Shown: positions 1,282 through 49,572, counted from the stretch's first letter. The stretch is 64,000 bases of DNA from an uncultured Bacillota bacterium (GCA_949287095.1 CASEFA010000001.1:69320-133319); one strand, 5' to 3'. The notes: generated from the sequence alone by a model not told the origin. Numbers and translations are program-made.

Positions 1282-3732
<2,451 letters not shown>

Positions 3733-4718: not shown

Positions 4719-5660
4719 TTACAGCTTCCCTGCTATTTCTTCTATCTTCTTAAACCTGTTATTCAGGCCCGACTTTTTCATGGGCGGGTCCGTCATCTCC
4801 GCCAGCTGGGTGAGGCTGGCTTCCGGATTTTCAAGGCGAAGTTCTGCCACCTCCCGGAGTTTTTCCGGAAGGCTTGAGAGGCCCTTTTTCTCTTCTATTT
4901 TCCTTATCCACTCTATCTGCTTCTGAGCAGCGTTGATGGTGCGGTCGGCATTGGCGTTGTCACAGTTGGTTATGCGCACCGTCTCGTTGACCAGCTCCTT
5001 CTTTATCTTCACGTTCTCAAAGGCCAGCATCTGGGTGTGGGCGCCCATTATAGCGAGGGTATCGCAGATGTAGTCGGAGTTCTTCATATATACGGCGTAC
5101 CCGCCTCTTCGGCTTACGGTCTTTGCCGACAGATCCACAAAGGTGTTTATCATCTTCTTCAGGTCGTCAGCAAATCTTCTGGAAGCGCAGAGAATCTCAA
5201 GGTGATACGCCTTTTCCGGGTCAGAAACGCTGCCCGAGCCCATGAATACGCCGCGAAGGTATGACTTTCTGCAGCATTTTGTCCTGATGAGGTCGTCGTA
5301 TATTCCGTCGGAAATGTAGTTGTTTCCCTCCCGGACGAGGAGAATTCCCGTCTCGCGGAGAATCTGCTCACTTCGCATTTCCGGGCCTATGGTGAGCATG
5401 TAGATTCTGCCCTTTTTCAGGTTGGTTCCTTCTCCCAGCTCCAGCTCCGTGTCCACCTGAAAGTAGTCCTTAATTAGCTTCTTGTAGTGACGGGCCACCG
5501 CCGGGTTATCTGTCGTAATTACAATCCTAAACTTTCCGCCTCCTGCAAGGCGTATACTTCCGGACACCCGAAGAAAGCCTGCGATTTCGGCAAGCTGGCA
5601 GCATTTTTTAGGCGGATATACCCTTGAAAGCTCGTTTTTCGTCTCGGTTGAAAATGACAT
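4719..5660 (-). CDS. whiA: DNA-binding sporulation/cell-division regulator WhiA
   Basis: 313 aa. MSFSTETKNELSRV...KKCCQLAEIAGFLRVSGSI N-terminus (LAGLIDADG-derived fold) and a C-terminal HTH (SLTQLAEM...SGLNNRFKKI), characteristic of WhiA. Confidence 0.9.
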   Translation of the reverse strand: MSFSTETKNELSRVYPPKKCCQLAEIAGFLRVSGSIRLAGGGKFRIVITTDNPAVARHYKKLIKDYFQVDTELELGEGTNLKKGRIYMLTIGPEMRSEQILRETGILLVREGNNYISDGIYDDLIRTKCCRKSYLRGVFMGSGSVSDPEKAYHLEILCASRRFADDLKKMINTFVDLSAKTVSRRGGYAVYMKNSDYICDTLAIMGAHTQMLAFENVKIKKELVNETVRITNCDNANADRTINAAQKQIEWIRKIEEKKGLSSLPEKLREVAELRLENPEASLTQLAEMTDPPMKKSGLNNRFKKIEEIAGKL

Positions 5661-5678
5661 AATTCTGCACCCTTCGTT

Positions 5679-5712
5679 AAAAAAGAAGCCTCACTCCCTG
5701 ATGAAGTGAGGC
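5679..5712 (-). terminator. rho-independent terminator after the BKACE gene
   Basis: On the minus strand, GCCTCAC-ttcatcaggga-GTGAGGC followed by TTCTTTTTT. It lies only about 19 nt upstream of the whiA ATG. Confidence 0.65.
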
Positions 5713-5730
5713 TGCCGTTAAACTACATAA

Positions 5731-6561
5731 CTATTTTCTCGGTGGAAGTGAGAGAATCTCTCTTGCTTCGTCAGGTGTAGCAATTTCTCTTCCGAGAAGC
5801 TTTGCAATCTGAACTGCCTTAGCTACCATTTCTCCGTTGCTCTTAGCGAGAACGCCCTTCTCCAGGTAGAGGTTATCCTCGAAACCTACTCTTACGTGTC
5901 CTCCCATAGCGATGGTCGCTGCAGCGATGTGCCATGCATTCTTTCCAAGGCCCGTTGCAGTCCAGGTGGATCCCGGAGGAATTGAGCCAACCATGAATAC
6001 CAGGTCTCTGATGGTAGCTGTCATCTGAACTCCGAGAACGAAGTCGAAGTGAAGCGGATGAACCAGAAGACCCTTTCTGTCAGCAACCTTAAGAGCCAGG
6101 TCGATCATGCCCTTGTCGAATACCTCGAGCTCAGGCTTGATTCCTCTTTCCTTAAGGATAGTAGCAAAGTTTTCGATAGTAGTGTCGGAGTTTACAAAGA
6201 TCTCGTCTCCTCCGAAGTTGCAGGTACCGCAGTCCAGTGTAGCCATTTCAGGGGTAGGAACGATCTCGGTGGACTGAAGTCTCTCCAGATCAGTCATGCC
6301 TACTGCTCCGCCTGTGGAAGGCTGAATGATTACATCAGGACATTCCTTTCTGATGGCGTCTACGCAGACCTGGAATCTCTCCTTGCTCTGAGTAGGGGTG
6401 CCGTCGTCTTCTCTTACGTGAAGATGTATGAGCGCTGCTCCTGCGTCATAAGCGGATTTAGCCTCTTTTACAATCTCCTCTACGGTGTAAGGAACTGCCG
6501 GGTTCTGCTCTTTAGTAACTTCTGCACCGCATATGCAGGCGCTGATGATAAGTTTGTCCAT
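5731..6561 (-). CDS. BKACE family enzyme (3-keto-5-aminohexanoate cleavage enzyme-like, DUF849)
   Basis: 276 aa. N-terminal MDKLIISACICGAEVTKEQNPAVPYTVEEIVKEAKSAYDAGAALIHLHVREDDGTPTQ matches the BKACE/DUF849 TIM-barrel signature as I remember it. Confidence 0.75.
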   Translation of the reverse strand: MDKLIISACICGAEVTKEQNPAVPYTVEEIVKEAKSAYDAGAALIHLHVREDDGTPTQSKERFQVCVDAIRKECPDVIIQPSTGGAVGMTDLERLQSTEIVPTPEMATLDCGTCNFGGDEIFVNSDTTIENFATILKERGIKPELEVFDKGMIDLALKVADRKGLLVHPLHFDFVLGVQMTATIRDLVFMVGSIPPGSTWTATGLGKNAWHIAAATIAMGGHVRVGFEDNLYLEKGVLAKSNGEMVAKAVQIAKLLGREIATPDEAREILSLPPRK

Positions 6562-6629
6562 TGGTCTTCTCCTTTAAATCTCTATTACCTGTATCCGCCA
6601 GTGCCGCGGACACCTTTAAACTGATATAG

Positions 6630-6658
6630 ATTATATCATCAAATGTCCCTGTGTTCAA
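6630..6658 (-). promoter_or_regulatory. sigma70-type promoter for the BKACE gene (TTGAAC-17-TATAAT with TG extension)
   Basis: Minus strand reads TTGAACacagggacatttgaTGaTATAAT. It overlaps the last codons and stop of rapZ. Confidence 0.55.
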
Positions 6659-7502
6659 GGGTGAGCCTGAGTCCTTCTTTATCGTTGAGCCTTCTGTACA
6701 TGCAGTTGGCCATGGTGACGCTGCGATGCTGGCCTCCCGTACATCCGAAGGCTACATTAAGGTGGTATTTACCCTCTTTAATGTACGCCGGAATCATCTC
6801 CATGAGAAGGGACTCGAACTTTTCCGCAAAGTCTGCGGCAACCTTCTGCCTCATGACGTAATCGTACACTTTTTTATTGTTCCCAGTAAGCTTCTTCAGG
6901 CTCTTTACGTAATACGGGTTAGGGATGAACCTCATGTCCAGAACCATATCCGCTTCGGCCGGAATGCCCTTTTTAAACCCGAATGACATTATGTTCACCG
7001 CAAAGGACGAACCGCCCTTTTCCTCACCGAACAGCCGCTCTATTTCTCTCTTCAGGTCTGCGACCTTCATCCCGGTAGTGTCTATTATATAGTCCGCGGT
7101 GGCTCTCACATCAGCCAGGGTATCCTTCTCCCGCTCTATTACTTCTCTGCTGGTGGATCCTGCCGCCAGCGGATGGTTTCGCCTGGTCTCGTTGTATCTC
7201 TTTATGAGGGTTTCGTCGGAAGCCTCGATGAAGAGAACCTTGCAGTCTATCCTTTCGTCCTTCCTGAGATCGGCTATGCACGATACCAGTTCAGAGAAAA
7301 ACTCTCCTCCCCGCACGTCAACGACAAAAGCCGCTCTGTCTATCTTCTTCTTCGACAAAGCCGTCAGTCCGATGAAGTCCTTTATCAGGGCAGGAGGCAT
7401 ATTGTCCACGCAGTAATACCCTCTATCCTCGAACCAGTCTATGGCGTTGGTCTTTCCCGCACCGGAAAGTCCCGTCACGATTACAGTCTGCAAAACATCC
7501 AT
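6639..7502 (-). CDS. rapZ: RNase adapter / nucleotide-binding protein RapZ (YvcJ)
   Basis: 287 aa. P-loop VIVTGLSGAGKTNAIDWFEDRGYYCVDNMPPALI and C-terminal GCTGGQHRSV motif. Confidence 0.9.
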   Translation of the reverse strand: MDVLQTVIVTGLSGAGKTNAIDWFEDRGYYCVDNMPPALIKDFIGLTALSKKKIDRAAFVVDVRGGEFFSELVSCIADLRKDERIDCKVLFIEASDETLIKRYNETRRNHPLAAGSTSREVIEREKDTLADVRATADYIIDTTGMKVADLKREIERLFGEEKGGSSFAVNIMSFGFKKGIPAEADMVLDMRFIPNPYYVKSLKKLTGNNKKVYDYVMRQKVAADFAEKFESLLMEMIPAYIKEGKYHLNVAFGCTGGQHRSVTMANCMYRRLNDKEGLRLTLEHRDI

Positions 7503-7507
7503 AGTTC

Positions 7508-8263
7508 CTAAACCTCTTCAATGTTCACAATACGTTCTATATCCAGTCCTGCAGCAAGAGCCCGCCGCACTCCGTTCTCGAAGCTTCCCACTCTTTCCGG
7601 CGTGTGAGCGTCGCTGCTGACTATGAACTTCACATCAAAATCTGCGCAGATTCTTATCTCATCCTCGGTGAGGTGAGAGTGCCACGTGCTTATCTCCATC
7701 CATGTGTCATTGGCCTCGCAGGCTCTGGCCAGCTCCGCAATGTCGAACTTCGCCTTATCCCCCGGATGAGTCAGAATTCTTATGTCGTTTTCATAGAGGC
7801 ACTTTACCGTCATATCTGTATTTGCGGCCATAAGCCTTCTTCCAGAACCGGCCGGCATAACTCCGCCCTTCGCGATACCGTTTTTCAGGCAGTTTCCGTT
7901 AAGAACGCCGTAATGATAACCCGCTATGACGAAGTCGAACATCTTCTTTTCCCTTTCGTTAAGGTCTATGTACGGAGCTTTTTTCAGGACGTTGGCCTCA
8001 ACACTTAAATATATGTCGATGTCCGGATAAAGCTTGTTCAGCCTGTCCACTTCAGCCCGCATTATGGTAAAGTCGCCCCGCTTTACTCCGTATAAGATGT
8101 GTCCCGGACCGTGGTCGGAAATGGCGACTGCCTTAAGTCCCTTCTCTGCGGCCACTTTCACGTTATCCTCTATGCTGCCCTTTCCGTGGGAAAAGGTCGT
8201 ATGGGTATGGTAATCAAAAGTCATACGGTAAGTCTTACCGTTAATTTCTGCCGTATTTATCAT
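7508..8263 (-). CDS. PHP-family phosphoesterase (histidinol-phosphatase-like)
   Basis: 251 aa. DYHTHTTFSHGKGS metal-binding N-terminus and a later SSDAH motif. Confidence 0.75.
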   Translation of the reverse strand: MINTAEINGKTYRMTFDYHTHTTFSHGKGSIEDNVKVAAEKGLKAVAISDHGPGHILYGVKRGDFTIMRAEVDRLNKLYPDIDIYLSVEANVLKKAPYIDLNEREKKMFDFVIAGYHYGVLNGNCLKNGIAKGGVMPAGSGRRLMAANTDMTVKCLYENDIRILTHPGDKAKFDIAELARACEANDTWMEISTWHSHLTEDEIRICADFDVKFIVSSDAHTPERVGSFENGVRRALAAGLDIERIVNIEEV

Positions 8264-11561: not shown

Positions 11562-12875
11562 TTATATGCTTTCCTTCCCCATGGCATAGTATTTATCCAT
11601 TTCTTCTCTCGGAACCATGCTTCCGCCCGTAGCCCATATAATGTGAACCGCATTGTCAAGCTTGTCCTTCAGGCCGTTCTTTATGAGATACGCTTCGGAA
11701 GCCAGCACGTGATGAGGCCCCGTAAAGCAGGCGCACGCCGACGGCTCCACCTCTATTCCCTCCGAATCCTTAAGTTCAGCCAGGAAAGGATAGAGCTTTT
11801 CGTCGTTTATGGTAAAGCAGCCGTCGAGAAGCGATTCCATAATGGTTCCCACCAGTCTTGAAGCTCTTCCCACAGCCAGTCCGTCGGCTGCGGTTTTACC
11901 GTCGAGACCTATGTCCTGAACAGAAATTTTATCGTTGAGTCCCGTCATCATTCCGAGGGTCATACACGGCGCATGGGTAGGCTCTCCGAAGAATACGTGG
12001 ATATTCTTCCCGAACACCTCTTTAAGTCCGAAGGTTATTCCTCCCGGCGCTCCCCCTACTCCGCAAGGTATGTACACAAATACCGGATGGTCATCGTCGC
12101 AGAGGATGCCCTGTTCCTCAAACTGCGCAACTATGCGCCTTGCGGCTACAGAATAACCGAGGAACAGATCCGCCGATCCCTCGTCGTCTACAAAGTGGCA
12201 CTTCTTATCGCCTGCCGCCAGCCGTCTTCCCTCAGCCACGGCTTTCTGGTAATCGTCCTCGTACTCAACCACAGTAACGCCCTTGGATCTGAGCAGATCC
12301 TTCTTCCACTGGCGTGCGTCGGCGGACATGTGGACGGTTACCTTGAATCCCAGCTTTGCACTGATTATTCCTATGGAAAGTCCCAGGTTTCCTGTGGATC
12401 CCACCGCCACGCTGTACTGACCGAAAAGTTCCATGAATCTGTCTTCCGTCAGTACGCTGTAGTCGTCGTCTCTCGTCAGCATGCCTTTCTCAGTTGCAAC
12501 TTTCTCCGCAAACTTCAGAACTTCATATATTCCGCCTCTCGCTTTCACCGAACCGGAAACGGCAAGGTGGCTGTCACACTTGAGAAACAGTCTTCCCGGA
12601 ACAGCGGCGCCGGCGTCCTTTTCCAGCTGTCTCTTCATGGCCGGAATCTCCTTAAGCGGTGATTCTATTATGCCTCCGGTGATTTCCGTCTCCGGGAACG
12701 CTTTCATTATATACGGCGCAAAACGCGCAAGTCTCGCCTCGGCATCCTCAATGTCCTTAAGTCCGAAAGGAATCACCATCTCCCCTCCGGATTTTTCGTT
12801 CAGCCACATGATTTCTCTGCACTCCACCATGTCGCTTATCATCGGATATTCCAACTTCAGCTTATCTACGTCCAT
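11562..12875 (-). CDS. dsdA: D-serine ammonia-lyase (D-serine dehydratase family, PLP)
   Basis: 437 aa. ...[20 protein letters not shown]... PLP-lysine region and the overall DsdA-like N-terminus (EIMWLNEK). Confidence 0.8.
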
Positions 12876-12890: not shown

Positions 12891-14960
12891 CTACAGTCCG
12901 TACTTTAACTTCTTCCTTGCGAACGTCGTCTGAGGCAGTCCCAGAATATCCGCCGCCTTCCTCGTCGTTCCGCCCTTTTTTATTGCATATTCTATAAGCT
13001 GTCTTTCCTGTCTTTCCATGATTTCATGGAAATCAACTCTGTTTTTCTCCTCCAGATCCACTGCGATGCTGAAGTGATCGGAGCCTTCGTTTTCCGAAAG
13101 GACCCTGGCCGTTCTTTCTGCTGATATTACAGCTCCATCAGCGCTTATAACCAGCCTGTGAACTACGTTTTCCAGTTCTCGCACATTGCCCGGCCAGTTA
13201 TATCTGTAAAGGACGTCAAGAGCTCCTGCCGACAGCTTCCTGCTTACGTTATACTTCTTCGCCCACTCGCTGACAAAGGCTTCAGCCAGACACCCTATGT
13301 CCTCTCTCCTGTTTCTGAGAGGAGGAACGTCTATGCAGCAGATGTTAAGCCTGTAAAAAAGGTCCTCCCTGAACGCGCCGGCATTTACAAGTTCTCTGAG
13401 AGGCACATTGTTGGCGGCAATGACTCTCACGTTTACGGAAACCTGGTGAGTTCCGCCTACCCTGTAGAAAGTGTTCTCCTGGAGAACCCTGAGAAGCTTG
13501 GACTGCATCGAAAGGGACAGGGTTCCTATCTCGTCCAGGAAGAGTATACCGTTATCGGCCATCTCAAAATATCCCTTTTTCCCTGCAGACGACGCTCCGG
13601 TAAAGGAACCCGGCTCATATCCGAAGAATTCCGATTCTGCCAGATTCTCGTGAATGGTGGCGCAGTTTATCTTGACGCACGGCATGGCGTGCCTTTCGCT
13701 GTTCTGATGTATTATGGAAAGAACTTTTTCCTTACCTGTTCCGGTTTCGCCCTGGATGATGACGTTGCAGTCGTACTTCGCAATGTTCATCACCTCTTCC
13801 ACCATTCTGGCGGTCACGGGACTCTGATATATGAAATCTCCCGCCCTTCCGGTGGCGAATATGTCCTGGCTCTTTGCGCGGCTTTCCGTAACGGCCAAAG
13901 GAACGGGTTTTCTTCCGTACATTTCATCGAGTCTGTCAAGTACAGTCTTTGACGAGCGTACCACATCCATAGTGAACACAGGGTAGTCCCTTATATACTG
14001 GTCAAAGAGGAACATGTATACCGACTTTCCTATGGATTCGGCCACCGTCTGAGCTATGGCATAGTGATTCTCCACCGTGGTAAAGTATATGCATCCCCAA
14101 GGTCTTGCCATAAACACGGCAAGAGTCTCCGCCCCGTAAATATCCTCGGCGACTATTACCATGTCGGCGCCGCAGCACTGCCTGTCCTCCGCCTTAAGCC
14201 TTTCGTAGGTATCCGCAGGGTCCGACAGGTCTGCCAGGATCACGTGATCCACATCCGGTGATACTGCAGCTTCTATAGTCTCTATGTCCAGCTCCCCTCT
14301 CAGGTTTTCATCGATTATGGCAGTAACCTCTGCAGACGGAGATGCTTTTTTCACTGCAGAAGCGTAGATAACAGACGTACAGGCGTTTCTTCCTATTACG
14401 GCGATGTTTACGGCACCTCTCTCTTCTGCCATGTTTCTCGCAGTGAGGAGACAGCCCGCCTCGTTTATGGCGGACATGGTATAAGTTTCCCCCAGAGTCT
14501 CATCTGCGGCAAAAACAGGAGACGTTTCAAAAAGTACTGCGTGTCCCTTCACCTCTATCTGTCCGTAGTTGAAGTCAACGTTTCCTATCTCATCGATATC
14601 AATCGGGATGCCGCAAAGAGAAGCAAGACAGTATACGCGGTCCCCCTCTCTGAGCGGACCTTCATATGCTCTGCCCGTCTTTTCAACGGCGCCGAGAAGA
14701 CATCCTCCCGTCCCCGTAAACGGATTATGCATCTTTCCCCTCTTGTCTACTATGTCCAGTATCTTAGCCCGTATCCGGTTCTCATTAAAACCGCAACTGC
14801 TGCATATCTGCTGGAAGCTGTCCCACTCTATATTAAGCTTTTCAATACCGACCAGAACTTCCCGGTCTGATATTTCCGTGCTGTTGTCCAGTTTCCATGC
14901 AGTTGCCGGAACAGCACCTTTCGGTTCCAGCACCCGGCTGACTCCAAAATCCTTACTCAT
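12891..14960 (-). CDS. sigma54-dependent transcriptional activator with an enzyme-like (3,5-diaminohexanoate-dehydrogenase-like) N-terminal domain
   Basis: AAA+ core with GETGTGKE Walker A, GSFTGA sigma54-contact loop, LFLDEIG Walker B, and a C-terminal Fis-type HTH (TTRKAADILGLPQTTFARKKLKYGL). About 350 N-terminal residues contain no receiver, PAS or GAF motifs. ATG 14960 with GGGAGA upstream is preferred over TTG 14984. Confidence 0.85.
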   Translation of the reverse strand: MSKDFGVSRVLEPKGAVPATAWKLDNSTEISDREVLVGIEKLNIEWDSFQQICSSCGFNENRIRAKILDIVDKRGKMHNPFTGTGGCLLGAVEKTGRAYEGPLREGDRVYCLASLCGIPIDIDEIGNVDFNYGQIEVKGHAVLFETSPVFAADETLGETYTMSAINEAGCLLTARNMAEERGAVNIAVIGRNACTSVIYASAVKKASPSAEVTAIIDENLRGELDIETIEAAVSPDVDHVILADLSDPADTYERLKAEDRQCCGADMVIVAEDIYGAETLAVFMARPWGCIYFTTVENHYAIAQTVAESIGKSVYMFLFDQYIRDYPVFTMDVVRSSKTVLDRLDEMYGRKPVPLAVTESRAKSQDIFATGRAGDFIYQSPVTARMVEEVMNIAKYDCNVIIQGETGTGKEKVLSIIHQNSERHAMPCVKINCATIHENLAESEFFGYEPGSFTGASSAGKKGYFEMADNGILFLDEIGTLSLSMQSKLLRVLQENTFYRVGGTHQVSVNVRVIAANNVPLRELVNAGAFREDLFYRLNICCIDVPPLRNRREDIGCLAEAFVSEWAKKYNVSRKLSAGALDVLYRYNWPGNVRELENVVHRLVISADGAVISAERTARVLSENEGSDHFSIAVDLEEKNRVDFHEIMERQERQLIEYAIKKGGTTRKAADILGLPQTTFARKKLKYGL

Positions 14961-15044
14961 TTTTTCTCCCAATATCGTATTCAATTACACGTTAGCTCCT
15001 ATTATGGTATTATTTCGGACAAAAAAAGTCAATGGTAATCACCG

Positions 15045-15079
15045 TTTTTGGAACACGAATTCAGTGTATATTCCAAAAA
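15045..15079. promoter_or_regulatory. 9-bp inverted repeat, candidate activator-binding site (UAS)
   Basis: TTTTTGGAA-N17-TTCCAAAAA, centred about 100 nt upstream of the -24/-12 promoter at 15160. Confidence 0.3.
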
Positions 15080-15159
15080 TGGGTCAAATGTGCCTGCGTT
15101 CACCTTCATCAGACACTGAAAACCCCGGCTTTGCCTGTATGTTAACTTTTTGGCAATTA

Positions 15160-15175
15160 TGGCACGGTAATTGCT
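15160..15175 (+). promoter_or_regulatory. sigma54 -24/-12 promoter
   Basis: TGGCACggtaaTTGCT, exact TGGCAC-N5-TTGCW spacing, about 70 nt upstream of the NhaC-family gene and divergent from the sigma54 activator gene. Confidence 0.75.
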
Positions 15176-15247
15176 TTTTAAGGGAGTACTCGCAATTATC
15201 AGAACGGGGTATGACATTTACCCGGAAATATGGAAAAGGAGACAGAT

Positions 15248-16756
15248 ATGAGTTTTCTAAAAGCATTTATTAAATTCGTACCGGTGTTCGTCCTTGCGGC
15301 TCTCATGATTATGGGATGGGACGCCCTCATCGCGGCACCACTTGCGACAATCGCGGCGGTTATAATCGCCAACCTTACCGAAAAGCTTAAGTTCAACGAC
15401 TGCCTTAAGGCGGCAATGGACAGCGTGGGCAACATTCTCGTGGCCCTGTTCATTCTCATGTTCGCATACGCCATGGCAAGCGCGTTCATGACCACGGGCG
15501 TAGGAGCATCCGTTGTAAACCTTGCTCTTTCCGTAGGCGTTACCGCTAGAACCACGGCGGTTATCGGACTTTTCGTTACCGGTATTCTTTCCGTTGCTAC
15601 GGGAACCTCCTGGGGAACCTTCGCGGCATGCGCACCTATATTCCTGTGGCTCATCCACATCGTAGACCCTAACTGCGCAGAGACCGGAAGCCTTCTCCTC
15701 ACCACCTGCGCTATCGCAGGCGGAGCATGCTTCGGAGACAACATCGGACTCATCTCCGATACCACTATCGTATCCTCCGGTATTCAGGGCGTAGAGGTAG
15801 TAGACAGAGTAAGAACCCAGGGCGTATGGTCTGTATCATGTCTCATTCTGGCAGGCGTATGCTTCTTCATCGCAGCCACCGTAATGGGACTTCCTAACAC
15901 TGCGGCTGATACCAGCGGCGTTCTGGACGCAATCCCTCAGAGCGGTCTCGACTACCTGGCAGTTGAAAGGCCTGAGGCTATAGACCTTCTCAATCAGGTC
16001 GAAAGCGGTGTATCCTATATAATGATTATTCCGCTCATACTGGTAATCGTCTTTGCAGTCATAGGCTTCAACACCTTTGCCTGCATCGGAACAGGTATAC
16101 TTTCCGCATACATCCTCGGAATCTTTGCCGGAACCACCAGCTTCACAGCAGCAGGTATCACCGAATATCTGGAGCTGTGCATGGACGGATTCGCAGACGC
16201 CGGTTCATGGGTAGTGGTAATGATGATGTGGGTTGCAGCCTTTGGCGGAATCATGGGCAAGATGCACGCCTTCGAGCCGCTTTCCAAGCTCATCGTTTCG
16301 GTTTCCAGAAACGTTAAGCAGCTTATGACCTGCAACGGTCTCCTCTGCCTCATCGGCAACGCCGTTCTCTCCGACGAGATGGCTCAGATCGTAACCGTAG
16401 GTCCTATCACCAAGAACATCGTAGAGGAAAATCTGGAAGGAACCGAAGAGGCTATGTACTCCATAAAGCTGAGAAACGCCACCTTCGGCGATGCCATGGG
16501 CGTGTTCGGCTCCCAGCTTATTCCCTGGCACGTATACCTCGCGTTCTACGTAGGTATCGCCGTAAACGTATATCCGCTGTTCGAGTTCAGCAACACAGAT
16601 TTCATAAAGTACAACTTCATGGCTATGATCGCTGTGGCATCCATGCTTCTCCTCACCCTTACCGGTGCAGACAGATTCGTTCCGCTGTTCAGAATGGCAA
16701 GAGAGCCGGAAATCCAGCTCAAGAAAAACATCAAAAAAGAAGAAGCCGCAGCTTAA
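15248..16756 (+). CDS. NhaC-family (Na+/H+ antiporter-like) transporter, probable amino-acid carrier
   Basis: About 500-aa polytopic protein with GTSWGTFAACAPIF and GACFGDNIGLISDTT motifs typical of the NhaC C-terminal domain family. GGAG precedes ATG 15248 by 6 nt, so this start is preferred over 15230. Confidence 0.8.
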   Translation: MSFLKAFIKFVPVFVLAALMIMGWDALIAAPLATIAAVIIANLTEKLKFNDCLKAAMDSVGNILVALFILMFAYAMASAFMTTGVGASVVNLALSVGVTARTTAVIGLFVTGILSVATGTSWGTFAACAPIFLWLIHIVDPNCAETGSLLLTTCAIAGGACFGDNIGLISDTTIVSSGIQGVEVVDRVRTQGVWSVSCLILAGVCFFIAATVMGLPNTAADTSGVLDAIPQSGLDYLAVERPEAIDLLNQVESGVSYIMIIPLILVIVFAVIGFNTFACIGTGILSAYILGIFAGTTSFTAAGITEYLELCMDGFADAGSWVVVMMMWVAAFGGIMGKMHAFEPLSKLIVSVSRNVKQLMTCNGLLCLIGNAVLSDEMAQIVTVGPITKNIVEENLEGTEEAMYSIKLRNATFGDAMGVFGSQLIPWHVYLAFYVGIAVNVYPLFEFSNTDFIKYNFMAMIAVASMLLLTLTGADRFVPLFRMAREPEIQLKKNIKKEEAAA

Positions 16757-25745: not shown

Positions 25746-26192
25746 CTAAAGTTTTTCCGAATCCAGAATAACCGTAAACGGCCCGTCGTTTACAAGGCTC
25801 ACCTTCATGTCTGCGCCGAAAACTCCACGCTCCACTACGGGAACGGATTTTCTGCATTCCGAAATGATGTACTCATAGAGCTCTTCCGCAAGGTCGGGCG
25901 CGCCGGCGTCCGTAAACCCCGGGCGGTTGCCCCTTTTGCAGTCGGCGTAAAGGGTGAACTGGGATATTAGAAGAAGGCTTCCTCCCACGGACTCCAGGTT
26001 CAGGTTGGTCTTGCCGTTTTCGTCCTCAAAAATGCGCATACCGATGAGCTTCTTTATCATCTTGTCTGCGGTTTCACGGGTGTCGCCCGATCCGACTCCT
26101 ATTAAGACCATGAAGCCTTTGCCGATCTGTCCGACAACCTCTCCGTCTACGCTGACGCTGCTTTCGAGAACTCTCTGAATAACAAATCTCAT
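25746..26192 (-). CDS. dtd: D-aminoacyl-tRNA deacylase
   Basis: [33 protein letters not shown]...SQFTLYAD...GNRPGF. The start shares one base with the racemase stop (TAATG). Confidence 0.9.
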
Positions 26193-26896
26193 TATTTGAT
26201 TTCTCCTATCGCTCTGTAATATTCTATGCACCTGTCGGCCATGATTTCCATAGGGTCGCGGTAGTATTCCGGAAGATCGAGCTCCTTCTTCACCACGGAA
26301 AGCTCGGTGCAGGCAAGGATTGCGGCTTCACATCCGGCGTCCTTTATTTCCTTTTCTATTTCCGCCCAGAGATCCGCATCTGCCGGCTTGTTCTGCTTGA
26401 TCAGGTCGTAGATGGTGCTCATTACCTTCTTCTGGCCCTCAGGTGAAGGAGTGTACGGAATGATATCGTGCTTTTCGAACTCATTCTGATAGAGCCTCGT
26501 CTTAACTGTTCCGTCGGTGGCGAGAATGGCAACAGGCTTTCCCTTGCAGGTTCTGGCAAGTTCCTTTGCCGTCTCCTCTATCATGTGAATGAACGGGATT
26601 CCTACTTCGTCTCTTACCATGTTGACAAAATAGTGAGCGGTGTTGCAGGTTACGGCAAGGGCGCTGCACCCTGCGTTTTCCAGAACCTTTGCATCCTTAA
26701 GGATTCGGTCGCGCACTTCGGCTACCTTCTCCTCGTCTCCCGAAAGGATTGCGCCGGTTCTGTCAGGCATGCCGGAATCGCTGTATATTATCATATTCAG
26801 ATTTTCCTGGTCGCAGCCTGCGTCGGTCTTATCGATTATCATATCGTAGAAAAGCGATGAAGCCAGCGGCCCCATTCCTCCGATTACTCCTAACAT
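26192..26896 (-). CDS. Asp/Glu/hydantoin-type amino-acid racemase (aspartate racemase-like)
   Basis: [13 protein letters not shown] start after AAAAGGAG. Two catalytic-Cys motifs, TCNTAHYF and ILACTELS. Confidence 0.8.
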
Positions 26897-27028
26897 AGTA
26901 TTATATCTCCTTTTCGTCACAATGTGAAGACGCCGCCGCAGCGGAATCCGATGCTTCGGCGGCGCCCGTTTATTTTTAAGATCCGGCGTCAGTTAGGGAG
27001 GGGGAATGCCGGATCATAGGAATTTGCT

Positions 27029-28072
27029 CTATAAAAACTCTCTGAGTCCGTAATAGATATTTCCGCGAACGCCCTTCGTCGTCTCTGCATGGTACATAGA
27101 GCTGATGACCGATTCTTCCACAGCCTCAACAGCCGCTTCGAACACTTTGTCTATCTTCTCGTCATCGAACATCTTAATATCGATGAGTGACTTATCGCTG
27201 TAATGAGGCACTCTGTTTCCGGTGCTGAAGGCTACGGCTATGTCTCCGCTTCCATTGCCTAAATACGATCCGCATCTTCCCAGGGCTATGGATGAACGTC
27301 TGGCAACTCTCTTCAGCTGGCGGTCGGAAAGAGGAATATCAGTTGCAATGATCATTATGATCGATCCCAGATCCTTCTTATCCTCTGCAGCCATTCTCTC
27401 CCTGATGCGCTTTCCGATGTGGTCTCCGCCTATAACAAGGTTTCCGGATCCGCCGAAGTTGGACATCACTATAGCGCCTACGGTATAGTCTCTGTCGTCG
27501 ACCTTCACTGTTCTGGATGACGAGCCTATGCCGCCCTTGAGGCCCAGGCAGCACATTCCGGTTCCGCCTCCAACAGCTCCCTCTTCGAAAATATCGCCGT
27601 CTGCTTCAGCCTTTGACAGAGCTTCGCGAACGTGTTCCTTCTTTACATGAAGTCCCCTTATATCGTTAAGTCTGCCGTCGTTGCACTCGGTTACGAGGCA
27701 GTTTACAGTTCCGGTCTTCACTCCTATATCATCGTTTCTCTCCAGCATGTATTCGGTCAGCGCCTCAGCTGCCGTTCCCACGCTTAAAGTATTGGTCATT
27801 ACAATCGGCGTCTCTATGGTTCCCAGCTCTTCCACCTGAACCAGTCCGAGACTCTTGCCGAATCCGTTTATAACGGATACGCCTGCCATGACTTTGTCGT
27901 GAAAAATATCTCCCGTATGAGGCAGAACCGCCGTAACGCCGGTATTTATCTCAGCTCCGTCCTGAATTGTCACGTTAGCTACCTTCACTCCCGGAACATC
28001 AGTGATAAGATTCAGCTTTCCTCTCTGCCATTTGGAATGCAGCTCCAGGCCGCAGTCTTTAGGTAATCCCAT
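27029..28072 (-). CDS. P1/S58 (DmpA-type) aminopeptidase / D-Ala-esterase family protein
   Basis: 347 aa. LNLITDVPGVKVANVT N-terminus and TDIPLSDRQLKRVARRSSIALGRCGSYLGNGSGD C-terminal region typical of DmpA/BapA-like Ntn hydrolases. Confidence 0.7.
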   Translation of the reverse strand: MGLPKDCGLELHSKWQRGKLNLITDVPGVKVANVTIQDGAEINTGVTAVLPHTGDIFHDKVMAGVSVINGFGKSLGLVQVEELGTIETPIVMTNTLSVGTAAEALTEYMLERNDDIGVKTGTVNCLVTECNDGRLNDIRGLHVKKEHVREALSKAEADGDIFEEGAVGGGTGMCCLGLKGGIGSSSRTVKVDDRDYTVGAIVMSNFGGSGNLVIGGDHIGKRIRERMAAEDKKDLGSIIMIIATDIPLSDRQLKRVARRSSIALGRCGSYLGNGSGDIAVAFSTGNRVPHYSDKSLIDIKMFDDEKIDKVFEAAVEAVEESVISSMYHAETTKGVRGNIYYGLREFL

Positions 28073-28091
28073 TTTTAAAGTTCCTCCGTAT

Positions 28092-28889
28092 CTATACCAT
28101 AAATGAATATGCTTCCAGCAGATCCGCCACGTCGTCGGTCTCGTATGTTACTGTGCAGTCGTCCTTCAGCACTGCGCCGGGATAGGTGGAAGCTTTCTTT
28201 GCTCTCGTGTGATATTTATATGTGAGCTCCATCTCAAAGTGCTCAGGTATTTCAGCACATTTGAAGTTCTTTTCGGAAACAGCGGCTTTTGCAGCCTCCT
28301 CTATCAGCTCACAGGCTTCTACAGGATGCATGTTGAGAGTTCCTCCGCTGACGCCTTCCTTAACGGCTACGGTCTTAATCCACGGACACGATTCGGCCGC
28401 CTTGTCACAGATTCCCTTATCTCCGGTTATAAGCGCGGAAGGAACGCCGTGTCTTGCCGCGGCAAGGGCATTCACGTCGAACTCCGCCATAGGCTTTCCA
28501 TTAAGAAGAGCCTTCTGGAGAACAGGAAACTCCGTCGTATGGGACAAAGGACTGCTGCTGCTTCCTGCCTCGGCATGATATCCGATGTAGAACGCACAGT
28601 CAAAACCTCCGCCTACTCCGGCCATCATGGCGTCGATATCCTGAGCCCATCCGCGCAGAACCCTTACGCCTCTCGGCATTGCAGACGGCTGTATGTTCAT
28701 GGCATCCTCATGGCCGTCTTTTACGACAACTTCGTCTGCGCCTGCGGCAATGGCGCCTCTGGCAGCCGCAGCCACCTCTTTATTCATCTGCTCAGCCGCT
28801 TCGGCATATCCGGGTTTTCCGTAAAATGTCTCGTCCCAGGTAGTAACTCCGGTACAGCCTTCTATGTCCGCACTAATAAAAACTCTCAT
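28092..28889 (-). CDS. dppA: M55 D-aminopeptidase (DppA family)
   Basis: 265 aa. MRVFISADIEGCTGV N-terminus and GYHA motif, typical of B. subtilis DppA-like peptidases. Confidence 0.8.
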   Translation of the reverse strand: MRVFISADIEGCTGVTTWDETFYGKPGYAEAAEQMNKEVAAAARGAIAAGADEVVVKDGHEDAMNIQPSAMPRGVRVLRGWAQDIDAMMAGVGGGFDCAFYIGYHAEAGSSSSPLSHTTEFPVLQKALLNGKPMAEFDVNALAAARHGVPSALITGDKGICDKAAESCPWIKTVAVKEGVSGGTLNMHPVEACELIEEAAKAAVSEKNFKCAEIPEHFEMELTYKYHTRAKKASTYPGAVLKDDCTVTYETDDVADLLEAYSFMV

Positions 28890-28927
28890 ATTCTGCCTCC
28901 CGTATCTCTGTCTTTGCGGAATATAAA

Positions 28928-28943
28928 AGCAAAAAATATGCCA
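28928..28943 (-). promoter_or_regulatory. sigma54 -24/-12 promoter
   Basis: Minus strand TGGCATatttTTTGCT, read as TGGCAT-N5-TTGCT, about 40 nt upstream of the dppA ATG and divergent from the second sigma54 activator. Confidence 0.7.
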
Positions 28944-29014
28944 AGAATTGGATGTTGAATTTGCTTGCTTTTTATATCAGCAGAACTTCTTTTTTACTGT
29001 ATTCGGATTTTAAA

Positions 29015-29027
29015 TCCCATTAAATCT
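29015..29027. promoter_or_regulatory. 13-bp palindrome, candidate UAS
   Basis: GGATTTtAAATCC, about 80 nt upstream (minus sense) of the -24 element at 28943. Confidence 0.25.
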
Positions 29028-29047
29028 TATTATGACCTTGAAAGCCC

Positions 29048-29076
29048 CGCTGAAAGGGGTTATAATGGACGGGAAT
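29048..29076 (+). promoter_or_regulatory. sigma70 promoter TTGAAA-17-TATAAT
   Basis: ccTTGAAAgccccgctgaaaggggtTATAATgg, about 45 nt upstream of ATG 29119. Confidence 0.6.
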
Positions 29077-29118
29077 TCGGGTAACAGGCATATTTTGAAA
29101 TTTGTAAGGAGCACAGAC

Positions 29119-31227
29119 ATGAAGACAGTAGCCATTGTATATAAGACTTCCTCCAATATGAACGCCATGAACTTTGTAAAGTCCAATCTTGAGGGCATAT
29201 TTGAGGACTTTGTGAGATTTTACAACGTACACCTGGAGGAGTATCCGGAAAACTCCGTACTCCACGCCGACGCATATCTTGTAAGCGGCGACGATCTGTA
29301 CGAACAGCTTAAGGAGCGCGTCGACAACTTCTCCATGATAGTAAAGCTGGAGAGAAGTCCTAACGTCAGAGCTCTGAAATCAATTTCGGAAATTCCGTCA
29401 GGGACAAAGGTTCTCCTGGTCAACGACAGCTATGAAACCGCTCTTTCCACCGCATACTCTTTTTACGAGATGGGCGTCAGCCATATTAACTTCGTACCTT
29501 TTGACAACAGCCTTGACCACACCGGCATTTACGACGACATAACCATCGCCGTAACACCTAACGAGCCGGATCTGGTTCCGGAGCACATCAGCGAAGTCAT
29601 AGATATAGGCTACAGAGTTGTAAGCTTCGACACTGTCGTTAAGCTCAAGCAGCTTCTGGACCTTGAAGCGGAGAGAATCAACAGAAACATATTCCGCTAT
29701 CTCCACACTGTTGTGGAGTCGGCCACCAGTTTCTACTCCAACTTCATTTACGATTATCTAAAGAGTGAAATGATAAAAAGAATCGTTGACGGAAGCGCCA
29801 TAGGCACCATCCTGGTGGATGCGCTCTTTGAGCCTGTATACGCCAACGCCAAAGCATGCTCTATCTTCGGCGTCTCCGACAAAACGGAGCTGAACCTGAG
29901 TGAAAATCTCCCGCCCGATGTCATAAGCTCTCCGGACGTCTCCGGAGCCAAGGTCACCATAAACCTTAACAATTACATTCTGAACAAGTACACCATCACG
30001 CTGATGGACGAAAAGGCGGGCTATTACATGACTCTTCAGGACGAGAGGGATACAGCCCCTCTCCGCCACTCACTTAAAGAAAAGGGTTACGTAGCAAACT
30101 ATCAGTTCAGCGATATCATATACAGGGCCTCGTGCATGGAGAAAGTTATCAGCACGGCCAAGCGTATAGCAGGCACCGATCTTACGGTTCTGATACGCGG
30201 CGAAAGCGGCACCGGAAAGGAAATGATAGCCCAGTCCATACACAACTATTCGGACCGGTCCATCTTCCCCTTTGTCGCCGTCAACTGCGCCGCGCTTCCC
30301 GAAACCCTTCTGGAATCGGAGCTGTTCGGATATGAAGCAGGTTCCTTCACCGGAGCCAGGAGCAAGGGCAAGGCCGGTCTGTTCGAACAGGCCCATCGCG
30401 GAACCATATTCCTCGATGAAATAGGCGATATATCCCCGAAGCTGCAGTCGCGTCTGCTCAGAACCATCCAGGAGATGCAGGTTATGAGAATAGGAAGCGA
30501 CAAAGTCATCAATATAGATGTGAGAATCATTGCCGCCACCAACAAAAATCTTGAAGCCGAAATCGCAAAGGGGAGTTTCAGAAGCGACCTTTTCTTCAGG
30601 CTCAACGTACTGCCGGTCTCCGTACCTCCTCTTCGCGAGAGGAAGGAGGATATTCCGGCGCTGCTGAAAAGCTTTCTGGGCCCGGACTACAAAAACGTAA
30701 GTCCCCACGAAAAGACGCTTATGATGAAATACGACTGGCCGGGCAACGTGAGAGAACTGAGAAATACAGCAGTATACTATAAATCTCTCTCCGAGCTTCC
30801 TGAATATCTGGTCAATATTGAAAACGCACGTTCCGGGCAGGAACAGACCGAAACGCAGAAGCAGGATCCATACGCCGGACAGGCGGCATCCCGTGCGGAA
30901 ATCCCGTCATACAATGGTGAAGTACCGGTCCAAAGCGGTATTTTCAACCCTCCGGAACCGAAGAGATATACGATCAGACGGCTGTCCTTTACCGAGGACG
31001 AACTGAAGCAGAAGGTTCTGTCCCTCATCTACGACAACTCCGCTCCCGCTCACGGCGTCGGACGTACCGTACTGGTACAGATACTTAAATCATCCGGCGT
31101 GAACATAAGCGATGGAAAACTTCGTGAGATACTTTCCGCTCTTTCGTCAGACGGTCTCATACAGATTGGCAAGGGACGCTTCGGCACCAGAATAACGGAA
31201 ATGGGTATAGACAAATTGAAAAGATAG
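29119..31227 (+). CDS. sigma54-dependent activator with PrpR-N-like plus PAS sensor and an atypical C-terminal winged-helix tail
   Basis: AAGGAG precedes ATG 29119, which is preferred over 29032. GESGTGKE, GSFTGA and IFLDEIG AAA+ motifs. After the AAA+ lid there is a low-complexity linker and ...GVGRTVLVQILKSSGVNISDGKLREILSALSSDGLIQIGKG... instead of a Fis-type HTH. Confidence 0.8.
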   Translation: MKTVAIVYKTSSNMNAMNFVKSNLEGIFEDFVRFYNVHLEEYPENSVLHADAYLVSGDDLYEQLKERVDNFSMIVKLERSPNVRALKSISEIPSGTKVLLVNDSYETALSTAYSFYEMGVSHINFVPFDNSLDHTGIYDDITIAVTPNEPDLVPEHISEVIDIGYRVVSFDTVVKLKQLLDLEAERINRNIFRYLHTVVESATSFYSNFIYDYLKSEMIKRIVDGSAIGTILVDALFEPVYANAKACSIFGVSDKTELNLSENLPPDVISSPDVSGAKVTINLNNYILNKYTITLMDEKAGYYMTLQDERDTAPLRHSLKEKGYVANYQFSDIIYRASCMEKVISTAKRIAGTDLTVLIRGESGTGKEMIAQSIHNYSDRSIFPFVAVNCAALPETLLESELFGYEAGSFTGARSKGKAGLFEQAHRGTIFLDEIGDISPKLQSRLLRTIQEMQVMRIGSDKVINIDVRIIAATNKNLEAEIAKGSFRSDLFFRLNVLPVSVPPLRERKEDIPALLKSFLGPDYKNVSPHEKTLMMKYDWPGNVRELRNTAVYYKSLSELPEYLVNIENARSGQEQTETQKQDPYAGQAASRAEIPSYNGEVPVQSGIFNPPEPKRYTIRRLSFTEDELKQKVLSLIYDNSAPAHGVGRTVLVQILKSSGVNISDGKLREILSALSSDGLIQIGKGRFGTRITEMGIDKLKR

Positions 31228-31281
31228 TTTTATTATACATTTTAGAAAAACAATCAGGCTGATTTAATCAGGAGGCATTCA

Positions 31282-32499
31282 ATGGAACCAAGCACAAAGA
31301 CATCAGTTACCCCCGCCGAGCTCATCGAAGCGGCAAAGGAGCTCTACCCGGAGACGGTGAGAATCAGACGCCATCTTCATTCCCATCCCGAGCTTTCAGA
31401 GCATGAAGAGAATACATCCCGGTTCGTACGCTCCATTCTCGATGAACACGGAATAAGCTATACATCCGGCGTGGCCGGATTCGGCATAGTCGCGCAGGTT
31501 GGAGACGTAAAGGACGGCTGCAGATGTATCGCCGTCAGAGCAGACATGGACGCTCTTCCCGTCTGCGAAGCCACCGGCCTTGAGTATGCGTCGGAGAACC
31601 CCGGCGTGATGCACGCCTGCGGTCACGATATGCACACGGCAATACTTCTCTCGACGGGAATACTTCTGAAAAAACTTGACGATGAAGGAAGGCTGAACGG
31701 AGCCGTAAAGCTCTTCTTCCAGCCGGCAGAGGAAACGGTAGGCGGAGCCTCTCCTATGATAGAAGCGGGATTTCTGAAAAATCCCGATGTAAGTGCCGTA
31801 ACGGCTCTTCACGTGGATCCGGAGTACCCTGCGGGAACCATAGTACTGAAATACGGTCCAATGAATGCGGCCACCGGAAGCTTCACCCTTACAGTGAGAG
31901 GAAAAAGCTGCCACGGCGCCCATCCTGATGCAGGTATAGATACAATCGTGGTTTCCGCTCAGGTAATTACCGCCGTCCAGTCAATATCCAGCCGTTTCAT
32001 GGCTCCTACTACTCCCGTAGTGGTGACCATCGGTTCTATAAGCGGCGGAACAGCCGGAAACATAATCGCCGGAGAAGTAGTAATGCGCGGCACCATAAGA
32101 GCCCTTGACATGGACACCATGGCAAAAGCAAAGAACCTGTTCGTGCAGATTGCGAAAAACACCGCATCCGCTTACGGAGCTTCTGCAGAAGTCCAGTGGG
32201 CGGACGACTATTATCCTGCCCTCATAAACGACGATGACGTTACCCGCGCCGTGGAAGAGACCACCGACGAATATCTTGGTCACGATATGGTAAGACACAT
32301 GCCGGAGCCGAGCCTCGGCGCCGACGACTTCGCCTTTTTCACCCAGAGCGTAAAAGGCACCTATTTCAATCTGGGCGTCACGAAGGAAGGGGATCCCGTA
32401 TACTCTCTTCACAACGAACACTTCGCTCCCGCAGAGGAAGCCATGTTAAACGGCGTAATAATACAGACAGCATCTGCACTTAAGCTGCTTGAAAAGTAG
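31282..32499 (+). CDS. M20-family amidohydrolase (N-acyl-amino-acid / peptide amidohydrolase)
   Basis: 405 aa. HPELSEHE...MHACGHDMHTA...FQPAEE motifs. Confidence 0.8.
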   Translation: MEPSTKTSVTPAELIEAAKELYPETVRIRRHLHSHPELSEHEENTSRFVRSILDEHGISYTSGVAGFGIVAQVGDVKDGCRCIAVRADMDALPVCEATGLEYASENPGVMHACGHDMHTAILLSTGILLKKLDDEGRLNGAVKLFFQPAEETVGGASPMIEAGFLKNPDVSAVTALHVDPEYPAGTIVLKYGPMNAATGSFTLTVRGKSCHGAHPDAGIDTIVVSAQVITAVQSISSRFMAPTTPVVVTIGSISGGTAGNIIAGEVVMRGTIRALDMDTMAKAKNLFVQIAKNTASAYGASAEVQWADDYYPALINDDDVTRAVEETTDEYLGHDMVRHMPEPSLGADDFAFFTQSVKGTYFNLGVTKEGDPVYSLHNEHFAPAEEAMLNGVIIQTASALKLLEK

Positions 32500-32509
32500 A
32501 GGAGGAAAC

Positions 32510-41934: not shown

Positions 41935-42098
41935 AAAATATGCCCCTTAACAGCTCCGCCAAACAAATGGAAAAGGCTTATCTGCGGCACATAAGAACCT
42001 CCGCTTATTGCTGCTTCCTTCCGGACCTGACAAGGTTCACGGTGTCTCATTGCGCAGGACCCAGACCAAGCCGGGCGAAGCTGTTAAAGGGCATATTT
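41935..42098 (-). ncRNA. ffs: signal recognition particle RNA (4.5S/scRNA, ffs)
   Basis: Minus strand contains the invariant domain IV motif GTCAGGTCCGGAAGGAAGCAGC. It is closed by a long terminal stem (ATGCCCTTTAACAGC...GCTGTTAAGGGGCAT) and sits in the classical ffs-dnaX-ybaB-recR arrangement. Ends are approximate. Confidence 0.85.
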
Positions 42099-43090: not shown

Positions 43091-43102
43091 TCACCTCCGG
43101 TA

Positions 43103-43639: not shown

Positions 43640-43652
43640 TTTCTATACCTCC

Positions 43653-44360: not shown

Positions 44361-44444
44361 AATTACTTTACCTCCAGTTTGAATAAATTTTTCCCCGTTT
44401 CGGGGAAATTCACGCCAGTAATTATAAAAACAGCCTATTCATAT

Positions 44445-44460
44445 TGCAATTCACGTGCCA
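44445..44460 (-). promoter_or_regulatory. sigma54 -24/-12 promoter
   Basis: Minus strand TGGCACgtgaaTTGCA, about 85 nt upstream of the spmA-like ATG at 44360. Confidence 0.75.
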
Positions 44461-46720: not shown

Positions 46721-46751
46721 TTTTTTACCTTTCCTTTCACATAAAACATAT

Positions 46752-48980: not shown

Positions 48981-49008
48981 TTTAGTTTACCTTCTTTCAG
49001 ACAAAATC

Positions 49009-49557: not shown

Positions 49558-49572
49558 TATATTAGCCCTCCT

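Follow-up and report, generated by a model that had tools for sequence, protein, structure and literature searches.

Enzyme-derived sensors occur in several bacterial regulators, such as MocR/GabR with their aminotransferase-like domains, the ROK repressors derived from sugar kinases, and PutA. Sigma54-dependent enhancer-binding proteins (EBPs) are classified by their sensor modules, which in a survey of Clostridiales comprised PAS, GAF, HPr-like, PrpR_N, ACT, CBS, Fe-S, hydrogenase-like, V4R, and receiver domains; a sensor resembling the lysine-fermentation enzyme L-erythro-3,5-diaminohexanoate dehydrogenase (Kdd) is not on that list, and a complete dehydrogenase-derived pseudoenzyme sensor is uncatalogued for the EBPs of this group (PMC6615313). 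Sigma54 control of lysine 2,3-aminomutase has been predicted in Bacilli (PMC12316311). Literature searches on sigma54 with lysine fermentation retrieved no description of the regulator reported here, nor did a paper on lysine in Intestinimonas contain one, and no paper describing a regulator of lysine-to-butyrate fermentation was found. Here, we analyzed 64,000 nucleotides of DNA from an uncultured Bacillota bacterium (GCA_949287095.1 CASEFA010000001.1:69320-133319; hereafter the window, with positions counted from its first letter), focusing on an EBP gene at positions 12891–14960. We propose, at a probability of about 0.6, that the sensor of this EBP (aa 1–350) descends from Kdd and became a pseudoenzyme receptor that switches on an NhaC-type transporter.

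Results

A sigma54 activator with a Kdd-like sensor

The EBP gene (12891–14960, minus strand; stop codon 12891–12893) encodes 689 aa that comprise a Kdd-like sensor, an AAA+ core, and a helix-turn-helix (HTH) domain. The open reading frame on this strand, 12891–14984, opens with a TTG codon; we chose the ATG at 14960, which yields the 689-aa product, because it agrees with the N-termini of homologues (M-KDFGVSRV) and is preceded by a GGGAG ribosome-binding site 7–8 nt upstream. The original prediction, made from the DNA alone, had described this gene as a degenerate Kdd-like enzyme fused to a sigma54 activator, and all four protein segments it quoted were located: GVSRVLEPKG...FQQI (aa 6–52), KRGKMHNPFTGTGGCLLGAVEKTG (aa 73–96), IAVIGRNACTSV (aa 186–197), and GSFTGA (aa 451–456). 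The fusion to an intact AAA+ core and a Fis-type HTH was borne out by Pfam domains and a motif scan. The AAA+ sigma54 interaction domain (13332–13832, minus strand; aa 377–543; PF00158 Sigma54_activat, E = 1.5e-62) retains Walker A (GETGTGKE, 404), the GSFTGA loop (451), Walker B (LFLDEI, 473), and REDLFYRL (531), and a WPGNVREL motif (589) sits in the lid (AAA_lid_14, aa 549–626). The C-terminal Fis-type HTH (12894–13034, minus strand; aa 643–689) matches HTH_50 (E = 2.5e-7) and, weakly, HTH_8. The best NCBIfam match of the C-terminal two thirds is PrdR of Clostridioides difficile, over aa 376–686 only. On its AAA+ domain, its HTH, and the promoter and enhancer near its target (see below), the protein is an EBP. 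No RpoN box is encoded in the window; the three EBP genes and four consensus sigma54 promoters found there imply that rpoN is present in the genome.

The N-terminal region is of a different kind. As predicted, no receiver, PAS, GAF, or V4R domain was found on aa 1–376 (Pfam, E ≤ 0.1); our local Pfam copy, which contains no KDD_N model, gave no match to this region at all. Its resemblance to Kdd is far above chance, with NCBIfam, phmmer, and Foldseek in agreement. In a phmmer search of PDB sequences, aa 5–349 aligned with residues 8–351 of the 358-residue 3,5-diaminohexanoate dehydrogenase of Candidatus Cloacamonas acidaminovorans (7DL0/1/3/7; E = 6.7e-30). The NCBIfam model Lys_ferment_KDD (NF052381) matched aa 6–170 (E = 2.4e-43) with 148.1 bits, which is below its 200-bit equivalog cut-off; true Kdd proteins encoded next to family members score 218–247 bits on this model. 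An AlphaFold2 model of aa 1–360 was of high confidence (predicted local distance difference test, 90.2; predicted template modelling score, 0.88), and its top seven Foldseek matches were the Kdd chains 7DL0/1/3/7 (E ~1e-30; template modelling score 0.68–0.79), followed by alcohol dehydrogenases of the medium-chain dehydrogenase/reductase (MDR) type (~1e-11). Profile and structure comparison with the Kdd/MDR folds both gave significant similarity, and the description of a GroES-like plus Rossmann architecture stands as a complete two-subdomain Kdd/MDR fold. The two halves differ in conservation: the KDD_N/GroES-like subdomain (14451–14960, minus strand; aa 1–170) has a mean identity of 38% to the enzymes, and the Rossmann-like half (13911–14450, minus strand; aa 171–350), in which the cofactor motifs are degenerate, 19%.

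Identical protein sequence is present on 7 metagenome contigs, and a 98%-identical copy occurs in a chicken-gut metagenome-assembled genome (MAG), Candidatus Avanaerovorax faecigallinarum. A public MAG record holds the orthologue solely as a 343-aa protein (GenBank HIV80648.1). Database names for such proteins are generic (“sigma-54 interacting regulator”, “Nif-specific regulatory protein”, “with PAS”); an equally long protein is labelled “regulator with PAS, ATPase and Fis domain” by JGI, with no PAS domain detectable. The newer Pfam model KDD_N (PF26370) has been precomputed on the window protein, so the fusion architecture is machine-detectable despite these source names.

Cofactor motifs are lost and acidic residues are conserved

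To compare the motifs of sensors and enzymes, we used an alignment of 98 stand-alone enzymes, 60 fusion sequences, and one 363-aa sequence with sensor motifs (P0062); the clade that holds the window protein accounts for 28 of these sequences. The dinucleotide-binding loop, I-x-G-A-G-G-K-S-G in the enzymes, reads I-G-R-N-A-C-T-S within the remnant IAVIGRNACTSV (14370–14405, minus strand; aa 186–197), and no intact GxGxxG is left, as had been suspected. Over the G-x-G-G-x-x-G core, the window protein has G-R-N-A-C-T-S, in which G190 is the sole surviving glycine; Gly193 and Gly196, each present in 96 of the 98 enzymes, are absent from all 28 clade sequences. Position 217, at the end of beta-2, is H, R, or Y in the enzymes, a residue that, from Rossmann-fold topology, would be the side that meets the 2'-phosphate of NADP; it is Asp in 27 of the 28. 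After beta-5, the enzymes have FFSMATSF and the clade YFT(S/T)VENHY (YFTTVENHY in the window protein), and near the nicotinamide amide GNGY (Gly323) is replaced by FDQY. The enzyme segment LGAEG has become VAESIG with its Glu kept, Glu308 corresponding to enzyme Glu310. In the enzyme, E310 hydrogen-bonds the NADPH amide, and the E310G variant has a changed substrate scope (PMC9902596).

The replacements are themselves conserved. Acidic residues occupy positions 167 (E, 28/28), 217 (D, 27/28), 272 (E, 27/28), 273 (D, 26/28), and 320 (D, 24/28), in place of the V, H/R/Y, V/I, N, and N, respectively, of the enzymes; N298 and Y300 are each found in 25/28. The window protein carries all seven signature residues of the degenerate-loop sequences (E167, D217, E272, D273, N298, Y300, and D320), and the net charge of the Rossmann half is −6.5 vs −0.3 in the enzymes. 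In the N-terminal subdomain, R9, R74, K76, H78, N79, T82, G85, and G86 are retained in all groups. By these alignments, the cofactor side is degenerate yet not decaying. The pattern suggests that the substrate-facing part was preserved and the former NADPH cleft rebuilt as an acidic pocket, which should exclude a dinucleotide and favor a cationic ligand. The sensor half looks like a pseudoenzyme; the terms “catalytically dead” and “ligand-binding” used in the original prediction are readings of these motifs. The window protein, in which three defining features of Kdd (EC 1.4.1.11) are missing, is on sequence grounds not a Kdd enzyme.

The fusion is a conserved family of Anaerovoracaceae

We searched GTDB, one genome for each species, with a fusion-specific alignment of the Rossmann half as the query and obtained 38 loci, almost all in Anaerovoracaceae/Eubacteriales Family XIII; the hosts include Emergencia timonensis, Senimuribacter, Eubacterium nodatum, Hornefia butyriciproducens, and Aminicella lysinilytica. 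The 37 complete loci all encode the AAA+ and HTH domains immediately C-terminal to the Kdd-like part, giving proteins of about 690 aa. An exhaustive HMMER search of 1.84 billion representatives returned 728 matches; among the best 150 of these were about 21 full-length (680–720 aa) fusion clusters at 50% identity, and the other full-length matches were stand-alone enzymes of about 345 aa. The survey of the distribution thus revealed a conserved family, not a one-off. The use of an enzyme fold as a sensor is already known as a general idea.

Six fusions (P0075, P0087, P0091, P0114, P0118, and P0128) keep the glycine-rich loop or a remnant of it. In a neighbor-joining tree, these six branch between the enzymes and one clade that contains all degenerate-loop fusions. 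Aminicella lysinilytica carries a pair of paralogous genes for Kdd-domain EBPs, separated by 3 kb (L034, 5668–12595), one divergent from an NhaC-type gene and the other from a LysP-like permease gene; the intergenic region of the latter contains a UAS-like (upstream activating sequence) half-site and no clear −24/−12 element.

Deep-branching members precede lysine fermentation genes

Outside the clade of the window protein, the genomic context could be read for five loci, the contigs of P0118, P0128, P0074, and P0085 being too short. Genes of lysine fermentation or related ones lie immediately downstream in all five, and a sigma54 promoter was found in four. The fusion P0087 (L044) is followed by the promoter TGGCATACAGCTTGCA and kdd; P0075 (L046/L047) by TGGAACGAAATATGCA, with two mismatches, and kdd, an amino-acid permease gene, kce, and a 4HBT (hotdog-fold) gene; P0114 (L048) by AGGCATAAATATTGCT and genes for a non-Kce BKACE, a 468-aa protein, and DctP; and P0091 (L051) by TGGCACGATACTTGCT and kal, kce, and dctPQM. 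The fifth, P0065 (L053), in which the loop is already degenerate, has kdd downstream and no promoter that we could find. An exact match to the strict sigma54 consensus is absent from both L046 and L053, and the element of L046/L047 is a two-mismatch candidate only. The Kdd, Kce, and Kal assignments in these relatives pass the NCBIfam equivalog cut-offs, a statement that excludes the 4HBT gene of L046/L047.

In the deep branches of the family, the EBP gene thus lies directly upstream of sigma54 promoters for kdd, kce, and kal, a context which indicates that the regulator originated alongside the pathway that supplied its sensor. Judging from L053, the cofactor loop was lost while the regulator was still attached to kdd. 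Links to lysine transport occur elsewhere in the family: L035 and L038 have a sigma54 promoter ahead of an APC permease gene whose best model is PRK10836 (646 bits), which we take to be E. coli LysP, and genes for LysO-family exporters were found near seven deeper members.

A divergent NhaC-type transporter gene is the most likely target

Divergent from the EBP gene in the window is a gene for a 508-aa transporter of the NhaC superfamily (15230–16756, plus strand; Pfam Na_H_antiporter), its inferred direct target. A divergent NhaC-type gene is the neighbor in about 28 of the 38 loci, with 61–78% identity for the transporter vs 28–51% for the sensor domain. The sigma54 −24/−12 promoter TGGCACGGTAATTGCT (15160–15175, plus strand) lies 55 nt upstream of the transporter ATG at 15230. 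It is one of 4 exact matches to the strict sigma54 consensus in the window, each ahead of a gene, vs 0.06 expected. In 26 related loci, a −24/−12 element likewise precedes the transporter orthologue, 11–75 nt from the start where one was called.

A putative enhancer, or UAS (15042–15086, no strand assigned), lies between the two genes as an inverted repeat with 12-nt arms (15042–15053 and 15071–15082) that are 92% complementary in a repeat search. Its right half-site, CCAAAAATGGGTCA (15073–15086), is an exact match to the family consensus, begins 87 bp ahead of the −24 element, and is the sole exact half-site match in 64 kb. Most NhaC-linked loci share a 14-nt half-site, TGACCCATTTTTGG, located about 130–150 bp ahead of the −24 element; its inverted partner lies at a distance of 35 bp. 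This layout of inverted repeat and promoter would be the expected anatomy of an EBP enhancer.

We also inspected RNA contigs from three gut metatranscriptome runs, which stem from a strain about 97–98% identical. One contig covers the transporter gene as a separate unit (15198–16755) at a depth of 17, the highest of the region, and depth is zero across 14766–15139 in the three runs. Collectively, the promoter, the enhancer, and their conservation make the divergent transporter gene, and not dsdA on the other side of the EBP gene, the most likely direct sigma54 target.

In four loci, the stretch just 3' of the EBP gene carries a small gene on the other strand (L010, 7805–8311, minus; L014, 7811–8317, minus; L021, ~2865–3095, minus; L039, ~7852–8085, minus). 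It encodes either 168 aa arranged as two repeats or about 77 aa, and in L010, L014, and L021 it is located between the EBP gene and dsdA. A sigma54 promoter of its own was found for it in L010, L021, and L039, and L010 and L021 also have a UAS-like half-site; in L014, where the intergenic sequence was not inspected, we detected neither element. The gene appears to be another target of the activator, and the window yielded no homologue of it.

D-serine as an alternative effector

The gene dsdA, encoding D-serine ammonia-lyase (11562–12875, minus strand; NCBIfam NF002823, 675 bits vs a cut-off of 246), begins 15 bp downstream of the EBP gene. An RNA contig (12573–12943) spans the junction of the EBP stop codon and the dsdA start, and dsdA is probably co-transcribed with the activator gene. 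As a sigma54 target in its own right, dsdA was rejected: no −24/−12 element precedes it here or in relatives.

This arrangement raises the main alternative, which we think unlikely, namely that the locus is a three-gene D-serine utilization module like E. coli dsdC-dsdX-dsdA, in which the EBP senses D-serine (or D-/L-serine) and induces the NhaC-type importer, and DsdA deaminates the imported D-serine. In addition to the high-confidence dsdA and the RNA contig over the junction, its favor comes from the six loci with dsdA, scattered over the NhaC-linked clade in a way that suggests old synteny, and from other sigma54 operons of the same window for D-amino-acid and peptidoglycan-peptide catabolism. 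However, those six are the only loci of 38 in which dsdA is adjacent, and it is absent from the neighborhood in about 22 of the 28 NhaC-linked loci. It never has a sigma54 promoter of its own; in L010 and L021, an extended −10 promoter of the sigma70 type is found instead. D-serine is also chemically remote from the ancestral substrate, and relatives of the EBP control kdd, kce, and kal. If the sensor is instead a Kdd-derived receptor controlling the transporter, dsdA would ride on the transcript of the regulator itself, outside sigma54 promoter control.

The place of dsdA 3' of the EBP gene is taken, in Emergencia and its relatives, by a conserved gene encoding about 1590 aa (L009, L011, L012, L015–L017, L019, L022–L024, and L030; truncated at the contig edge in L013 and L018).

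Proposed mechanism and candidate ligand

We propose that the HTH binds the inverted repeat at 15042–15086 and that, as is usual for ligand-gated EBPs such as XylR/DmpR and NorR, the Kdd-like module represses the AAA+ domain as long as no small ligand is bound. The AAA+ ring would then remodel sigma54 RNA polymerase at 15160–15175 and turn on the transporter gene. The leading candidate for the effector is a positively charged amino acid from the lysine pathway, namely L-lysine, beta-lysine, or 3,5-diaminohexanoate; it would be held by the retained motifs of the N-terminal subdomain and the newly acidic former NADPH cleft, and the transporter would be the uptake system for that substrate.

Within this model, we place a ligand from the lysine pathway somewhat short of even odds. 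It is favored by the ancestry of the module, the control of kdd, kce, and kal in relatives, the LysP- and LysO-like neighbors, and the acidified pocket, and further by a kce gene in the window and by published links between LysW of the NhaC superfamily and lysine riboswitches. The kce gene, for the 3-keto-5-aminohexanoate cleavage enzyme (5731–6561, minus strand; NCBIfam Lys_ferment_KCE, 408 bits vs an equivalog cut-off of 382), encodes the step after Kdd; it is context evidence for lysine fermentation by this organism and stands outside the claim about the regulon. It lies between a rapZ-like gene and whiA (4719–7502, minus strand), a place usually taken by yvcK in Firmicutes, and its surroundings showed neither kdd nor kam genes. 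As for the transporter, LysW of the NhaC superfamily is a candidate lysine transporter under a lysine riboswitch (PMC5584792, PMC11477304), and NhaC-family members have been predicted to be amino-acid transporters under T-box control (PMC2494555). An Rfam search found no lysine riboswitch in the window; the sole match was a bacterial small signal recognition particle RNA (41967–42066, minus strand; RF00169, 73 bits).

Several points weigh against the proposal of a Kdd-derived receptor that controls the transporter. The effector is deduced only from ancestry and genomic context, and since the clade of the window protein has left the kdd/kce operons, the ligand may have changed; the scatter of dsdA across six loci of the clade could mean an ancestral D-serine module. 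The placement of the acidic residues in the cleft follows from Rossmann/MDR topology and a sequence alignment to 7DL3, and the neighbor-joining tree carries no bootstrap support. At the target, the left half of the UAS is degenerate, with 5 mismatches to the consensus; the matches of the transporter to NhaC and NhaC-type ArcD in NCBIfam are weak; and the RNA contigs, which have neither strand information nor true depth, are supportive only.

Three other readings concern the sensor itself. It may be a scaffold for dimerization or repression that binds no small molecule, with activity set by protein level or a partner, and the loss of the cofactor motifs would agree with this, as would the fact that no ligand has been demonstrated; MDR-type enzymes are generally known to oligomerize via the Rossmann half. 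The seven clade-conserved signature residues and the retained N-subdomain motifs argue instead for a maintained site, and the neighborhood holds no conserved candidate partner gene, which leaves this reading distinctly improbable. A redox sensor in the manner of Rex, produced by a switch from NADP(H) to NAD(H), is very unlikely: an Asp at the end of beta-2 is the classical signature of NAD-preferring Rossmann folds, so the conserved D217 speaks for it, together with the retained E308, whose enzyme equivalent hydrogen-bonds the nicotinamide amide; however, only the first glycine of G-x-G-G-x-x-G is left, the motifs after beta-4 and beta-5 and GNGY are all replaced, and the pyrophosphate should be repelled by the four other acidic residues. 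Finally, a PutA-like bifunctional protein that is still an active 3,5-diaminohexanoate dehydrogenase is scarcely credible, since full-length homology to Kdd, the retention of E308 and the N-subdomain motifs, and the glycine-rich loop of the distant members P0087, P0118, and P0075 are opposed by the loss from the window protein of that loop, the beta-2-end H/R/Y, FFSMATSF, and GNGY, by a Kdd score of 148 vs the 200 bits of the equivalog cut-off, and by a Rossmann half only 19% identical to the enzymes.

Other sigma54 modules in the window

The three EBP genes and four consensus sigma54 promoters of the window are spread over 64 kb. The second EBP gene (29032–31227, plus strand; 731 aa) encodes a 360-aa N-terminus that has no NCBIfam match and is unlike Kdd; the likeness of this EBP to the first is confined to the AAA+ part. 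The module to which it belongs spans 26192–33622; the EBP gene is divergent from a consensus promoter (28928–28943, minus strand) that drives genes for a D-aminopeptidase (M55), a peptidase S58, and an Asp/Glu racemase, and downstream of it lie genes for a CpsA-like amidohydrolase and an alanine or serine racemase. The third EBP gene (52097–53950, minus strand; 617 aa) has PrdR as its best match, over the C-terminal part.

Two further modules (42167–44460 and 48060–50411) are paralogous. In each, a consensus sigma54 promoter (44445–44460 and 50396–50411, both minus strand) precedes a gene for a “Gate”-domain membrane protein, with an LD-carboxypeptidase (S66) gene further downstream on the same strand; between the modules lie genes for DapF (46752–47591) and an Orn/DAP-type decarboxylase (45422–46855). 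The paired modules look like a sigma54-controlled system for salvage of peptidoglycan peptides.

Discussion

Evolution of the sensor

The proposed history begins with a kdd duplicate that would have been fused to a sigma54 AAA+ activator beside a lysine-fermentation operon. The earliest-branching fusions keep a glycine-rich loop. At two loci, L048 and L051, they adjoin BKACE-family operons with no separate kdd in the stretch seen; they might still act as the dehydrogenase and, if so, would be PutA-like enzyme-regulators. Later members would have lost the cofactor site and remade the NADPH cleft as an acidic pocket suited to a positively charged amino acid, and paralogues in Anaerovoracaceae would have come to control different amino-acid transporters (NhaC-type and LysP-like). 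Only tentatively, and at odds well below even, do we take the family as a living series from enzyme to receptor, through loss of the cofactor site, an acidic cleft, and paralogue expansion, with the window protein as a receptor for lysine or a diamino acid.

If true, this would add a new structural class of lysine/diamino-acid receptor to the EBPs. The family offers a candidate regulator of lysine-to-butyrate fermentation and related uptake in gut and oral fermenters such as Emergencia, Eubacterium nodatum, Hornefia, and Aminicella. The series from loop-retaining to cofactor-less members would offer a case for studying how a pseudoenzyme becomes a receptor, and the domain could become a biosensor part for lysine-pathway or beta-amino acids.

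Comparison with known systems

With the Kdd enzymes, the window protein shares the two-subdomain fold over the whole length, the motifs RVLEPKG and RGKMHNP-TG-GG, and Glu308, which corresponds to enzyme Glu310. It differs from them in its fusion to an AAA+ core and an HTH, in the replacement of the loop, the beta-2-end H/R/Y, FFSMATSF, and GNGY, and in the gain of five acidic residues; its gene does not adjoin kam, kce, or kal.

Ligand-gated EBPs such as XylR/DmpR (V4R), NorR (GAF), TyrR (ACT-PAS), PrpR, AcoR, and PrdR have the same module order of sensor, AAA+ domain with a GAFTGA-type loop, and Fis-type HTH, and they share with the window locus a divergent target with a −24/−12 promoter and an upstream inverted-repeat enhancer; PrdR has the theme of amino-acid catabolism in common with it as well. 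The difference lies in the sensor, which in the window protein is a 350-aa enzyme-derived module of the MDR type. LysW resembles the transporter at the level of the NhaC superfamily and in having its expression tied to a lysine-related signal, but it is controlled by a riboswitch, whereas here a protein activator and sigma54 would take that part. As in MocR/GabR, ROK proteins, and PutA, the catalytic fold of the regulated pathway would have been reused as an effector-binding module; the present family differs from these in its AAA+ sigma54 output, in having a dehydrogenase as the donor, and in that the cofactor site, and not the substrate site, has apparently been rebuilt.

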